Of a DNA stretch of 44,789 nt, positions 23,505-32,289 are shown piece by piece. How positions within the stretch are numbered: position 1 is the first letter of the stretch; each line of letters begins with the position of its first letter. Below the pieces are notes generated by a model. It was not told the origin of the DNA. It did no database searches and saw only the letters and a list, made by a program, of their open reading frames with translations. A program made the translations under genes and the position numbers. This stretch comes from Vectrevirus PDP21P6, in the sequence record OZ035822.1. One strand, given 5' to 3'.

Positions 23505-23527
23505 ATTTACTGGACACTATAGAAGAG
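23505..23527 (+). promoter_or_regulatory. phage RNAP promoter
   Basis: ATTTACTGGACACTATAGAAGAG, +1 G at 23522. Confidence 0.7.
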
Positions 23528-23577
23528 AAGAATTTTAATAGGCGATAATGCCACAACCAACAAAAGGAGAATTTAAT

Positions 23578-23949
23578 ATGTTCAAGATTGAAACTATCGT
23601 AAACCGTGTTGTTAAAGGTGCTGCTCTGGTATCCGTTGAGTCTTTCATTATCGTCGATGAAGCTGATCAACTGGTAGCTGGTACTAAGGCTTACGATACC
23701 CGTGAAGAAGCTCAGGCTAAGATTGACAGCATGGGTAACTTCGCTGCTGGTCTGGAGTTCGCTCGTGCTTGCTTCCCTGAGCAGGCTGACAAAGCTCAGA
23801 TTGGTAAGGCTAATATCGTAGCTGAATATCTGGATTGGGTTGCTGCTGGTAAACCAGTGAAAGAAGTTAAGGCTGCTGAAGAAGCTGAAGCTCCAGCAGA
23901 AGAAGTAGCTGCGCCGGAAACTCCGGTAAGCGAAGAGGAAGAGTTTTGA
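23578..23949 (+). CDS. hypothetical protein with acidic C-terminal tail
   Basis: ATG 23578 with AAGGAG RBS; 123 aa ending ...ETPVSEEEEF; own promoter and own terminator. Confidence 0.55.
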   Translation: MFKIETIVNRVVKGAALVSVESFIIVDEADQLVAGTKAYDTREEAQAKIDSMGNFAAGLEFARACFPEQADKAQIGKANIVAEYLDWVAAGKPVKEVKAAEEAEAPAEEVAAPETPVSEEEEF

Positions 23950-24007: not shown

Positions 24008-24041
24008 GCCCTGTCTGCCTTAGTGTAGGCAGGGTCTTTTG
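24008..24041 (+). terminator. T-phi-like intrinsic terminator
   Basis: CCCTGTCTGCC-ttagtg-TAGGCAGGG 10-bp stem with two G-U pairs, then TCTTTT. Confidence 0.65.
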
Positions 24042-24066: not shown

Positions 24067-24357
24067 ATGCCGACTATTGAAGAACGTTTCCTGATTCACG
24101 TAAGCTTCTCGCCCATACATCTTGGTTATCTTATCACTATTCTATTAGGTGAAGAGATTTATCTGCATAACTACTTAATACCAGAGTATGTATGCCTTCG
24201 AGATAAGATACACCCTGCTAATTGGGCGAAAGAGTGGTTGCGTGAACATGTGCTGAAGGAGTGGCCTACATGCGACCAAACTTCGACTTCGGAGCTACAG
24301 TATCGGAAGACAATAATCTCATCCTGTGGCCAACTGAAGGTAATCGAATCGCTTTAA
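24067..24357 (+). CDS. hypothetical ORF overlapping exonuclease start
   Basis: 96-aa ORF with GGAGAG RBS; overlaps exonuclease by about 88 nt in another frame. Confidence 0.25.
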   Translation: MPTIEERFLIHVSFSPIHLGYLITILLGEEIYLHNYLIPEYVCLRDKIHPANWAKEWLREHVLKEWPTCDQTSTSELQYRKTIISSCGQLKVIESL

Positions 24358-25295
24358 TAGACGCTGATATGTTACCTTACATCGTCGGGTATACAATCAG
24401 TGACATGACTTATGTACGAGCTACAACTCGTGTTAAGTCAGGACAAGTCCCATCAATCAAAGATACCCCTGAGTGTAAGCAAGCGTGTGACCGTGTGAAC
24501 TCCTTGCTTAACTCTTGGGTGTATGCAGCAGAGTGTGATGCTGCTAAGTTATTCATGACGAAGTCAGAAGCTAACTTCCGTGTCCGCCTAGCATTCACCA
24601 AACCTTATAAAGGTCAACGTAAGACCGAGAAGCCTCCATTCTTCTATGAAATGCGAGAGCATCTCTTAGAGGTTCACGGTGCAATCTTGGCAGATGGTGA
24701 GGAAGCTGATGACCTCATGAGTATTGCACAATGGGACAGCCATCGCCGCTTCCAGCAAGATACAGGTAACGAGTTCCCTATCGGTAGTCCAGAGCATAGA
24801 GCATTCTCTGACACTTGCATCGTTTCCTTGGATAAGGATTTGATGATTGTTCCCGGTTGGCATCTACAGCCGGGAGGTGAGAAGAAATGGGTAGAGCCTA
24901 TGGGTTGGCTTGAGCTACGCCGCAAGGCTAATGGTCAAGTGAAAGACCTTAAAGGCGCTGGCCTCATGTTCCATTATGCACAGATGATTATCGGTGATGA
25001 TATTGATAATTACGCTGGCATACCCGGACGTGGTGCTAAATACGCCTATGATCTTCTCAAAGATTGTAAGACAGAGAAAGAGTTGTACATGGCAGTGCTT
25101 GGTGCATACAAGGCTAAGTTCGGACATGGACAAGTTAAGATTAAGAATTACCGAGGTGGTTATCGTATCGGCAAGGCTTTTGACCTGATGCTTGAATGTG
25201 GTCGCCTAGCACACATGGCAAGATTCAAGGGTGATATATGGCGAGCCGATAAGAACCCAATCTTGTGGGGAGATGAAGGATGGCTACAAAGCTAA
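24270..25295 (+). CDS. 5'-3' exonuclease (T7 gp6-like)
   Basis: ATG 24270 with AAGGAG RBS; acidic metal-binding motifs ALIDADMLPYIVGY and ILADGEEADDLMSIA. Confidence 0.85.
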   Translation: MRPNFDFGATVSEDNNLILWPTEGNRIALIDADMLPYIVGYTISDMTYVRATTRVKSGQVPSIKDTPECKQACDRVNSLLNSWVYAAECDAAKLFMTKSEANFRVRLAFTKPYKGQRKTEKPPFFYEMREHLLEVHGAILADGEEADDLMSIAQWDSHRRFQQDTGNEFPIGSPEHRAFSDTCIVSLDKDLMIVPGWHLQPGGEKKWVEPMGWLELRRKANGQVKDLKGAGLMFHYAQMIIGDDIDNYAGIPGRGAKYAYDLLKDCKTEKELYMAVLGAYKAKFGHGQVKIKNYRGGYRIGKAFDLMLECGRLAHMARFKGDIWRADKNPILWGDEGWLQS

Positions 25296-25684
25296 AATCT
25301 TCTGAAGTTGCTGCCTATAAGAAAGAATTGCTAGAGAAGCAGGGTTGGAAGTGCCCTATTTGTGGAGCACCGCTTAAGGCAGTAGCTGAGATTAACCGAG
25401 TGTTAGACCATTGTCATCGCAGAGGTTATTGCAGGGCAGTACTCTGTCGTGGATGCAATGGTGGTATCGGGAAGATAGAAAACTTAGTAAAGACTTATTG
25501 TAAGGCTGGAGATAATGAGTACTTCATTATCAAGACACTGCGGAATATCGCAGATTATCTAGACTTACATAGTAAGCCTCAGACTGATAAGATTTATCAC
25601 AAACATCAAACGGAGGCAGAGAAGCGCGAGGCTAAGAACCGTAAGGCACGCCTTGCTTATGCAAGAAAGAAAACAGGAGGTTAA
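25280..25684 (+). CDS. endonuclease VII-like Holliday junction resolvase
   Basis: CPICG...LDHCH...CRGCNG Cys/His arrangement as in the T4 endonuclease VII family; 134 aa. Confidence 0.55.
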   Translation: MATKLKSSEVAAYKKELLEKQGWKCPICGAPLKAVAEINRVLDHCHRRGYCRAVLCRGCNGGIGKIENLVKTYCKAGDNEYFIIKTLRNIADYLDLHSKPQTDKIYHKHQTEAEKREAKNRKARLAYARKKTGG

Positions 25685-25685
25685 C

Positions 25686-26126
25686 GTGGCTTGCATAGAT
25701 CACGGACATTATAAATGTCTGAATAAACTAGGATATTACCGCTCATGGCACAAGCCTAGTAAGAAGTTACAACTGCTTCATAGAGTGGTCTATGCTGAGC
25801 ATCATGGGTTATCTCTTGAAGCAATAGAAGGTCTAGTGGTCAGACATACTTGTGACAATGCAAGATGTATTAATCCACAGCATCTTATAATTGGTACGCA
25901 GCAGGATAACATACAGGATATGGTAAAAAGAAACCGTCATGCACGTATGATAGGAGATACTAATCCTAGGGCTGTACTTACGTGGGATGTAGTGCGAGAT
26001 ATTCGTGCCAATTATATTAAGGGTGCAAAATCTGGCCCATATTCACGTACAGTCTTGGCAGAGAAGTATGGTGTCTCTGCTGCCACTATTAGTGATATTA
26101 TAGCTGGAAGGAGTTGGAAAGAATAA
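25686..26126 (+). CDS. HNH homing endonuclease (second copy, different subfamily)
   Basis: GTG 25686 with AGGAGG RBS; motif HRVVYAEHHG...VRHTCDNARCINPQHLIIGTQQDN plus C-terminal HTH-like segment. Confidence 0.75.
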   Translation: MACIDHGHYKCLNKLGYYRSWHKPSKKLQLLHRVVYAEHHGLSLEAIEGLVVRHTCDNARCINPQHLIIGTQQDNIQDMVKRNRHARMIGDTNPRAVLTWDVVRDIRANYIKGAKSGPYSRTVLAEKYGVSAATISDIIAGRSWKE

Positions 26127-27133
26127 TGGGTAAGATTCGAAACTTGTTTACTAATAAGGAGGTAGAAGAAGCAGTTGAAAGTGCAAAGCGGGACAACGGC
26201 ACTATCAACTATCGCCTAATGGCGTCTATTCTCTCAGATAACACGCATGGAACTACAGTTACAAGACAACTTGCAAAGTATTGGGCCAAACAGTTTGAAA
26301 AGCGGAAGAAGAATGGCGAGGCTTATGAAACCTTGGCTATTGCGAACCGCGCTATCAAAGAAGAACGTAAGCTCAGGACTCCTGACCGCTACGAGGATTT
26401 GGCTATTGTACCATTGCCTGACTCGCCTCATCGAAGTGTACTGGTAATACCTGACACCCATGCACCTTATGAGCATCCAGATACATTAGAGTTTCTGGCA
26501 GCGGTGGCAGCACGTTACCGTCCAGACACTGTAGTTCATCTTGGTGATGAGGCGGACAAGCACGCACTTTCATTCCATACGTCAGATCCTAATCTGGATT
26601 CTGCTGGTATGGAGTTAGAGAAGGCTCGTATCTTCATGCGTAAATTACATAAGATGTTCCCTGTAATGCGCATCTGCCACTCTAATCATGGCTCCTTACA
26701 TTTCCGTAAGGCCAGTGCTCATGGCATCCCTGTGCAATACTTGCGCACCTACCGTGAAGTCTTCTTCCCGCAGGGAGGTGGCGACCAGTGGGACTGGCAG
26801 CATACGCATGTCCTTGAGTTACCTAATGGAGAACAGGTGGCATTCAAGCATCAACCTGCTGGTTCTGTCCTAGCAGATGCAGCACACGAGCGTATGAACC
26901 TTGTGTGTGGTCATTTGCATGGTAAGATGTCTGTTGAGTATGCACGTAATACACATGAACAGTATTGGGCTGTGCAAGGTGGCTGTCTGATTGATGAGTC
27001 ATCTCGTGCATTTGCCTATGGTCGTGAGTCTAAATACAAGCCAGCATTAGGTTGTGTGGTCATTCTGGAAGGTGTGCCTCATATTGTCCCGATGCAAACC
27101 AATAGCAACAATCGCTGGATTGGTAAGATTTAG
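26126..27133 (+). CDS. calcineurin-like metallophosphoesterase
   Basis: motifs VIPDTHAPY, GDEADKH, SNHG, GHLHG; ATG overlaps upstream stop. Confidence 0.75.
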   Translation: MGKIRNLFTNKEVEEAVESAKRDNGTINYRLMASILSDNTHGTTVTRQLAKYWAKQFEKRKKNGEAYETLAIANRAIKEERKLRTPDRYEDLAIVPLPDSPHRSVLVIPDTHAPYEHPDTLEFLAAVAARYRPDTVVHLGDEADKHALSFHTSDPNLDSAGMELEKARIFMRKLHKMFPVMRICHSNHGSLHFRKASAHGIPVQYLRTYREVFFPQGGGDQWDWQHTHVLELPNGEQVAFKHQPAGSVLADAAHERMNLVCGHLHGKMSVEYARNTHEQYWAVQGGCLIDESSRAFAYGRESKYKPALGCVVILEGVPHIVPMQTNSNNRWIGKI

Positions 27134-27150
27134 TTGACACTATAGAACAA
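27128..27150 (+). promoter_or_regulatory. phage RNAP promoter (variant, closer to SP6 consensus)
   Basis: ATTTAGTTGACACTATAGAACAA, +1 G at 27145; followed by hairpin 27151-27172 and TGATTGTGTAGTG box. Confidence 0.5.
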
Positions 27151-27201
27151 AGGGCAGGTACTAGCTTGCCCTTGATTGTGTAGTGAATGGAGGAATTAAT
27201 T

Positions 27202-27672
27202 ATGTCAAAGATTGATATTGGCGAATACGTCGTACGCCGTGCAGCTTACCGAGATGCCAACTGGAATAAACTGTGTGAAAGCTTAAACAAGAAACCAGAT
27301 GAGGTATTCAAAGTATCCCGTGCAGAACCTAATTATAACTCTATCATGTTAGAAGGTGTGGAGAAGCGCGAATGGTATGCACCTTACTTCAAGGTTGTTG
27401 ACTCATTGCAAGGTGAAGATCCTGACACGTTGGACAACAATATGGTTACTAAACCCAAACACTACGAGTTCTTCGATGGCGTAGAAGCAATCACTATCAT
27501 TGCCCGCAGCATGACTGAGAAGCAATTCGCTGGGTACTGCATGGGTAATGCTTTGAAGTATCGTCTGCGTGCAGGTAAGAAGTTCAATACTGAAGAAGAC
27601 CTGAAGAAAGCAGACTACTACAAAGAATTATTCCATAAGCATCGTCACGAATGTATTGATGAGGATATTTAA
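27202..27672 (+). CDS. hypothetical protein
   Basis: ATG 27202 with GGAGGA RBS; 156 aa; conserved-looking segment GYCMGNALKYRLRAGKK. Confidence 0.5.
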   Translation: MSKIDIGEYVVRRAAYRDANWNKLCESLNKKPDEVFKVSRAEPNYNSIMLEGVEKREWYAPYFKVVDSLQGEDPDTLDNNMVTKPKHYEFFDGVEAITIIARSMTEKQFAGYCMGNALKYRLRAGKKFNTEEDLKKADYYKELFHKHRHECIDEDI

Positions 27673-28988: not shown

Positions 28989-29111
28989 ATGCTTGAGATG
29001 ATTCTCAAGCCTTCTTCTCCGAAGGTGACTAAGACTCATGAAGAGTTAATCGTTGATGAAGTGAAGCGTTACATCATGGATTGTGTCAGAGCACAACTGG
29101 TGGTCCAATGA
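28989..29111 (+). CDS. hypothetical small protein
   Basis: 40-aa ORF with AAGGA RBS; stop overlaps GNAT start. Confidence 0.25.
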   Translation: MLEMILKPSSPKVTKTHEELIVDEVKRYIMDCVRAQLVVQ

Positions 29112-29569
29112 TACGTCCAGCTTCCTTCCTAGATATTCCTGAGATTATAAACCTTGGGAATAAATATGTGGAAGAGGAAGTCAAGGTTGTAGCCCACCAC
29201 TCAGCCTCATGGAATGCAGAACAAAGTGCACATAACCTTTGTGCATCTCTTAGTAGAGAAGATTTATTCCTATGGGTTGCTGTAGATGAAGGGCAGATTG
29301 TAGGGTTCCTGTGGGCTGGCTATCACGAGTTGGCCCCTTGGACACCTGTAAGAGTTGCCTCTGACATTCTCTTTTATATTATACCAGAGAGGCGAGGAAC
29401 ACTTCTTGGTATGCGTCTCATCAAAGCCCTAAAGCAATGGGCTAGTGATAATGAATGCTCTGAGGTTCGCCTGTCTATCGCCTCTGGTATTAATGAAGAA
29501 CGTGTCGGACGTATGTATAAGCGACTTGGCTTTGAACCGTTTGGCACTGTGTATAACATGAAGTTCTAA
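29108..29569 (+). CDS. GNAT-family N-acetyltransferase
   Basis: acetyl-CoA binding motifs RRGTLLGMRLIKAL and ERVGRMYKRLGFEP; 153 aa. Confidence 0.7.
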   Translation: MIRPASFLDIPEIINLGNKYVEEEVKVVAHHSASWNAEQSAHNLCASLSREDLFLWVAVDEGQIVGFLWAGYHELAPWTPVRVASDILFYIIPERRGTLLGMRLIKALKQWASDNECSEVRLSIASGINEERVGRMYKRLGFEPFGTVYNMKF

Positions 29570-32266: not shown

Positions 32267-32289
32267 TTTACTGGACACTATAGAAGGGA
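32267..32289 (+). promoter_or_regulatory. phage RNAP promoter for capsid gene
   Basis: ATTTACTGGACACTATAGAAGGG, +1 G at 32283. Confidence 0.75.

Follow-up and report, generated by a model that had tools for sequence, protein, structure and literature searches.

A metallophosphoesterase gene in the DNA metabolism module of an SP6/K1E-like phage encodes a relative of Bxb1 gp47 and candidate DNA phosphodiesterase

Sequence analysis of a 44,789-base stretch of DNA from Vectrevirus PDP21P6 (record OZ035822.1), hereafter the window, centred on an open reading frame (ORF) for a metallophosphoesterase. The window represents the entire genome, circularly permuted, of an SP6/K1E-like podovirus (genus Vectrevirus, Autographiviridae), and its identity to Vectrevirus records reaches 96%. 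Matches to its ORFs run in the order terminase, SP6-type RNA polymerase, primase-helicase, DNA polymerase, exonuclease, ligase, portal, capsid and tail proteins. The phosphoesterase ORF lies on the + strand at 26126..27133 and encodes 335 amino acids plus a stop codon; its reading frame opens at 26114 (TTG) or 26126 (ATG) and ends at 27133. The ATG and the TAA stop codon of an upstream HNH ORF have one base in common (TAATG), and the ATG is preceded by a purine-rich, Shine-Dalgarno-like stretch, GGAAGGAG...GGAAAGAA, read from the sequence at 26106..26123 (+ strand). Alignment showed that the start Met of the homologues corresponds to that of the window protein, and the annotated homologous coding sequence in phage vB_EcoP_C is likewise 1008 nt long.

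The ORF and its assignment to the enzyme family are confirmed as genuine. The gene itself is ordinary, widespread and previously annotated, with little novelty: it is labelled "metallo-phosphoesterase" in the RefSeq/GenBank records of Vectrevirus, its counterpart in SP6 is gene 22, and phage vB_Ec-G9 carries a copy that is 99.1% identical. A tblastn search found the gene in 642 phage records, nearly all of them 40-46 kb Autographiviridae genomes, with Klebsiella, Escherichia, Pectobacterium, Pseudomonas, Aeromonas, Vibrio, Proteus and Salmonella as hosts. Large protein collections yielded 1814 homologues and, at the level of 50% identity, 1694 clusters.

The window protein has all five of the classical metallophosphoesterase motifs (coordinates on the + strand). 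Motif I, IPDTHAPYEH (26447..26476), has the core PDTHAP with D110 and H112 as metal ligands, and motif II, HLGDEADKH (26537..26563), has the core GDEAD and comprises G140, D141, E142, D144 and H146. Motif III, CHSNHGS (26675..26695), supplies the metal ligand N187 and the catalytic His H188, and its S186-N187-H188-G189 is an SNHG variant of GNH[DE]; the N and H are invariant in a broad alignment that includes Bxb1 gp47. Motif IV, FKHQ (26843..26854, with H242), and motif V, VCGHLHGK (26903..26926, core GHLH, with G262, H263 and H265), were located by alignment with homologues. None of these residues varies among 27 homologues with 51-86% identity to the window protein, and in a broader alignment (22-53% identity) G45, D46, N92, H93, H168 and H170, in truncated numbering, are still invariant. 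Apart from the variant motif III, the pattern of Pfam Metallophos PF00149 (DxH, GDxxD, GNH[DE], H, GHxH) is complete, and the profile scored 21.8 bits over residues 109-193 only, a borderline pass of the gathering threshold of 21.5. PHROG 221, "metallo-phosphoesterase", matched over the full length (E 4.5e-105) and was the sole PHROG match. The initial annotation had described a calcineurin-like metallophosphoesterase with four signature motifs; the superfamily is upheld by the motifs, the PHROG 221 match and the 1814 homologues, and the motifs are indeed there, though they number five and not four.

The catalytic domain occupies residues 103-335 (26432..27130, + strand) and has the two-sheet beta-sandwich fold of phosphoesterases. 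Two further elements in it are specific to the family. One is a loop, HALSFHTSDPNLDSAGMEL (26561..26617, + strand), in which H146, S149, H151, S153, D154 and P155 are invariant in alignments and which was modelled at low confidence; the other is a C-terminal motif, GCLIDxxSxAFAYG (26981..27022, + strand), which alignments also found in stand-alone members and which is recognisable in Bxb1 gp47. Some homologues carry inteins in the active site: inteins of about 300 amino acids lie within motif II of P0121, P0131 and P0161 (junctions GDE|C...N|CD), and another, with a LAGLIDADG domain, lies within motif I of P0160 (junction DLH|C...GN|CPY). Two independent intein insertion sites thus occur in one small enzyme family. 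The strict conservation of the metal ligands, together with the inteins in motifs I and II, suggests that the active site is strongly constrained and the enzyme active, and the window protein is predicted to be a catalytically competent, binuclear phosphoesterase.

A typical member of the family is a stand-alone protein of about 235 amino acids, equivalent to residues 100-335 of the window protein. The N-terminal helical domain (residues 1-91; 26126..26398, + strand) is restricted to the Autographiviridae branch, across which these roughly 90 residues are conserved, and it has a weak likeness to Myb/SANT/helix-turn-helix (HTH) domains and to the DNA-binding domain of small terminases. Winged-HTH fusions at the N-terminus have been gained independently in other lineages: homologue P0213 matched HTH_24 with 27.4 bits, above the cut-off, and P0154 gave several HTH matches, all sub-threshold. 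Residues 2-44 (26129-26257, + strand) also matched the profile of the fourth EF-hand of calmodulin (E 0.006); the calcium-ligand positions are not conserved, and the EF-hand reading was rejected as probably a chance helix-loop-helix similarity.

The relatives of the window protein with experimental data are found in mycobacteriophages. PHROG 221 was also matched by Bxb1 gp47 (E 4.5e-116) and D29 gp54 (E 2.6e-113). Mycobacteriophage proteins were scored with a hidden Markov model (HMM) made from 85 stand-alone proteins related to the window protein, which gave 49.8 bits for D29 gp54 and 42.6 bits for Bxb1 gp47, as against 2.7 bits for D29 gp66 and -1.1 bits for LeBron gp46, which are other mycobacteriophage metallophosphoesterases. 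An hhalign comparison reached 80% probability over 191 columns. Because of the common PHROG, the HMM contrast and the hhalign result, the kinship to gp47 and gp54 is more specific than the motifs of the superfamily. As judged from these comparisons, the window protein belongs to the phage family of Bxb1 gp47, L5/D29 gp54 and A10ZJ24 gp48 (PHROG 221). Two proteins were dropped as guides to its function: D29 gp66, a cAMP and diester hydrolase (PMC12287305), falls in PHROG 547, and LeBron gp46, a phosphoesterase that is uncloneable and so presumed to be toxic, lies outside the family by its HMM score.

Experimental work on the family points to DNA. The cluster A homologue A10ZJ24 gp48 is a phosphodiesterase that depends on Mn and breaks down DNA in linear, circular and genomic form; its motif-I Asp is likewise at position 10, and the D10G mutant is inactive (PMC12287305). 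The protein is toxic on expression and is required for phage replication in M. tuberculosis (PMC12287305). Bxb1 gp47 serves the phage's serine integrase as recombination directionality factor and acts on it through protein binding; the gp47 gene lies between those for polymerase and primase, and homologues also occur in phages with tyrosine integrases (PMC1470463). It is also needed in the replication of phage DNA (PMC11795197).

The predicted fold of the window protein is closest to MJ0936, YfcE, Vps29, PolD DP1 and Mre11. The PPP protein phosphatases are further off, with PP5 at 10.2 and lambda phosphatase at 9.3 in the structural ranking, and Foldseek was concordant. A search of PDB sequences with the single protein gave no meaningful match, a profile of 39 family sequences gave nothing at E <=1, and none of the PADLOC defence-protein models matched the window protein at E <=1. 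The YfcE/MJ0936 model TIGR00040 scored 12.1 bits against a curated cut-off of 56.25, and the PdeM model TIGR04123 scored 21.4 bits over residues 114-146, around motif II, against a curated cut-off of 150; with these sub-threshold NCBIfam scores, membership in the YfcE or PdeM families was not established. Proteins of the Mre11/SbcD group have a C-terminal capping domain and a Rad50/SbcC partner. The window protein ends right after its catalytic domain, and no Rad50/SbcC-like ORF was found in the window, where the large ORFs, among the matches listed, are those of terminase, RNA polymerase, primase-helicase, DNA polymerase and tail/internal virion proteins.

The phosphoesterase gene is the last of a unit that opens with an SP6/K1E-type phage promoter at 23508..23525 (+ strand), located by a promoter scan. 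A small ORF (23548-23949) follows, and between it and the exonuclease gene is a terminator-like hairpin of 11 pairs and a T-run (24008-24035, + strand), which may attenuate transcription into the downstream exonuclease, endonuclease VII and phosphoesterase genes. The first gene after the hairpin encodes a T7 gp6-like 5′-3′ exonuclease (24261..25295, + strand; a weak Pfam 5_3_exonuc match, an annotated homologue and a PHROG exonuclease match). The start of the next gene, for endonuclease VII, a junction resolvase (25280..25684, + strand; Pfam Endonuclease_7, E 6e-13), overlaps its end, and start and stop codons continue to overlap through the HNH ORF to the phosphoesterase. The HNH ORF (25653..26126, + strand; Pfam HNH_3 with a zinc-binding loop) encodes a homing endonuclease and looks like a mobile insertion: at least 80% of the segment 25600-27700 was covered in just 8 of 94 related phage records, and most relatives match this segment in two pieces, with the HNH gene not listed. 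PhiM1-like phages have the same order of exonuclease, endonuclease VII and phosphoesterase (PMC6115819).

A second promoter-like site from the scan (27131..27148, + strand) overlaps the stop codon of the phosphoesterase gene and opens the unit of the DUF3310 and ligase genes. SP6/K1E-type sites resembling TACTGGACACTATAGAAG number 13 in the window, where chance would give 0.15, and 12 lie on the + strand; further examples are at 124-141, 2661-2678 and 32269-32286, and together the sites delimit the transcription units of the genome. Next after the phosphoesterase is a gene that relatives have annotated as "nucleotide kinase" (27187-27672, + strand; DUF3310, E 2.8e-25), whose kinase label rests on family naming because only its C-terminal 60 residues match Pfam. 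Between the ligase and portal genes is an acetyltransferase ORF (29081-29569, + strand), annotated as such in vB_EcoP_C; a PHROG acetyltransferase family is matched by two ORFs of the window. The placing of the phosphoesterase in a DNA metabolism module by the initial annotation is borne out by the order exonuclease, endonuclease VII, HNH, phosphoesterase, DUF3310 and ligase.

The arrangement recurs in part among more distant members. Of 80 metagenomic viral loci, all outside the Autographiviridae size range and many from one clade, 18 have a gp6-like exonuclease 2-3 kb upstream of the homologue and 5 have endonuclease VII. Across 14 diverse loci, genes for ThyX, ribonucleotide reductase, dUTPase, DNA polymerase A, ligase, SSB, Sak, ERF and DUF2800 are among the neighbours, and so are tail and terminase genes.

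Starting from the fold, motifs, family membership and gene arrangement established in the present analysis, we favour, with moderate confidence, the reading that the window protein is a two-metal DNA phosphodiesterase or nuclease acting in replication, recombination or host-DNA breakdown. DNA is suggested as the substrate by the data on the family, by co-transcription with two nucleases, by the DP1- and Mre11-like fold neighbours and by the recurrent DNA-binding-type N-terminal domains. By analogy with the superfamily, D110, H112, D141, N187, H242, H263 and H265 would hold two divalent metal ions, probably Mn2+, that activate water for attack on a phosphodiester, with H188 stabilising the transition state or the leaving group. 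Relatives and gene context indicate that the substrate is most likely DNA, whether at its ends, as single strands or as branched intermediates. The enzyme may then be a third nuclease beside the co-transcribed gp6-like exonuclease and endonuclease VII, and its tasks could be the processing of replication and recombination intermediates, the breakdown of host DNA, or both. The Myb/HTH-like N-terminal domain might anchor the enzyme on DNA or on a partner in the replisome.

A more specific form of this proposal has a low probability: the protein could be a nuclease dedicated to assisting the replisome or recombination, the phage equivalent of the PolD DP1 or Mre11 phosphoesterase. The Myb/HTH-like domain would bring it to a family-A polymerase replisome, and most non-T7 Autographiviridae would need it to replicate their genomes or process concatemers. 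A further effect in this case, evasion of defence through damage to host DNA, is possible.

Several points weigh against a DNA nuclease. T7-type relatives are not known to need this gene for their replication. The fold matches of the N-terminal domain to HTH/Myb proteins are weak (Z <=5.2), and our literature searches for functional or experimental work on the Autographiviridae phosphoesterase found none. The context of the distant stand-alone members is mixed, some being near tail or terminase genes and some adjoining Acb1, so that the neighbourhood supports a role in DNA metabolism only in part. The DNase activity of gp48 is non-specific in vitro, and earlier work on gp47, as cited there, found no phosphoesterase activity (PMC12287305). 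The exonuclease activity of gp47 was weak, and contamination was not excluded by the authors (PMC11795197). On balance the initial interpretation holds in part: it was right about superfamily and module, and of the three roles it suggested DNA-directed action fits best, given the family with Bxb1 gp47 and D29 gp54 and the DNase activity of gp48 (PMC12287305).

Among the alternatives, the protein could be a nucleotide-pool enzyme that hydrolyses short oligonucleotides, dinucleoside polyphosphates or nucleotides, salvaging host DNA toward the DUF3310 "nucleotide kinase". The position of the gene between the nucleases and the DUF3310 ORF suits such a role, as do ThyX, ribonucleotide reductase and dUTPase beside distant members, but a phage promoter separates the phosphoesterase from the DUF3310 gene, and N-terminal fusions of DNA-binding type are hard to reconcile with a small-molecule enzyme. 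Family members also act on DNA in vitro (PMC12287305, PMC11795197). We consider a nucleotide-pool enzyme rather unlikely.

Slightly less probable again is an anti-defence phosphodiesterase that destroys immune signals such as cGAMP, cyclic oligoadenylates, cCMP/cUMP or gcADPR. Such an activity would accord with the nearest folds, MJ0936 and YfcE, which are generic phosphodiesterases, and with the counter-defence phenotype of A10ZJ24 gp48 (PMC12287305). In the metagenomic contigs L007 (6691-7191), L013 (6691-7197) and L011 (6697-7203), of 183, 183 and 45 kb, the gene immediately 3′ of the homologue is the anti-CBASS gene Acb1 (E 1e-32 to 1e-34), but this adjacency is limited to one distant clade. 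A YqeY-like ORF flanks the homologue upstream in the same three contigs. Genes that counter defence belong more often to the variable accessory set, whereas the phosphoesterase gene is syntenic and near-core across the 642 phage records, and it lies within the replication module. Acb1 and Apyc1, phage enzymes known to degrade such signals, are folded differently. Co-transcription with two nucleases and the recurrent HTH fusions in the family also speak against a signal-degrading enzyme, as does the need of DNA replication itself for gp47 (PMC11795197).

It is very improbable that the protein serves chiefly as a scaffold or regulatory partner without catalysis, comparable to gp47 in its directionality role, to Vps29 or to the eukaryotic polymerase B-subunits. 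Vps29 and inactive polymerase B-subunits are indeed among its structural neighbours, and gp47 works on integrase by binding it (PMC1470463); against this, the metal ligands and the catalytic His are all invariant, inteins have targeted the active-site motifs, and no integrase is among the matches listed for the ORFs of the window (25 of 112 families). Hardly credible is a lambda-like protein phosphatase for Ser/Thr (or Tyr) that resets host or phage phosphoproteins; a Ser/Thr protein phosphatase had been one option in the initial annotation. Despite the common superfamily fold and the name "phosphatase 2a-like protein" in some database records of homologues, the signatures GDxHG, GDxVDRG and GNHE, which in PPP enzymes go with phosphate-binding arginines, are missing, PDTHAP, GDEADKH and SNHG stand in their place, and PHROG 221 is the only PHROG matched.

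Therapy against E. coli K1 and Klebsiella is an actual or proposed use of many SP6/K1E-type phages. The link to the gp47 family provides a cheap and concrete hypothesis for a gene they carry, that of a Mn-dependent DNA nuclease required for replication, which would also help to settle the "primary" job of the recombination directionality factor gp47.

Among the closest known systems are the cluster A mycobacteriophage phosphoesterases (Bxb1 gp47, L5/D29 gp54 and A10ZJ24 gp48): the window protein has motifs II-V and the C-terminal G.L.D motif in common with them, with only about 22% identity over the catalytic domain. In gp47, however, Q replaces the motif-I His and the HALSFH..DPNL loop is absent, and the cluster A mycobacteriophage proteins lack the N-terminal domain. 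Bxb1 gp47 doubles as the directionality factor of a serine integrase, whereas the matches listed for the lytic window phage, as given above, include no integrase. The Bxb1 and D29 homologues sit amid polymerase, primase and endonuclease VII genes, with endonuclease VII within ~2 kb.

MJ0936, YfcE and Vps29 are proteins of 160-190 amino acids without the family-specific loop, C-terminal extension and N-terminal domain of the window protein, and their motif III is of the GNCD type, unlike its SNHG. PolD DP1 and Mre11/SbcD are 13-15% identical to it in sequence, and their OB or capping domains are missing from it. The lambda Ser/Thr phosphatase belongs to another phage protein family, whose PPP-specific motifs the window protein lacks. 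PdeM, represented by the Pseudomonas putida MPE, is a ligase-associated, Mn-dependent endonuclease of single-stranded DNA, and it is like the window protein in being a stand-alone metallophosphoesterase encoded near an ATP-dependent DNA ligase (PMC7826289).

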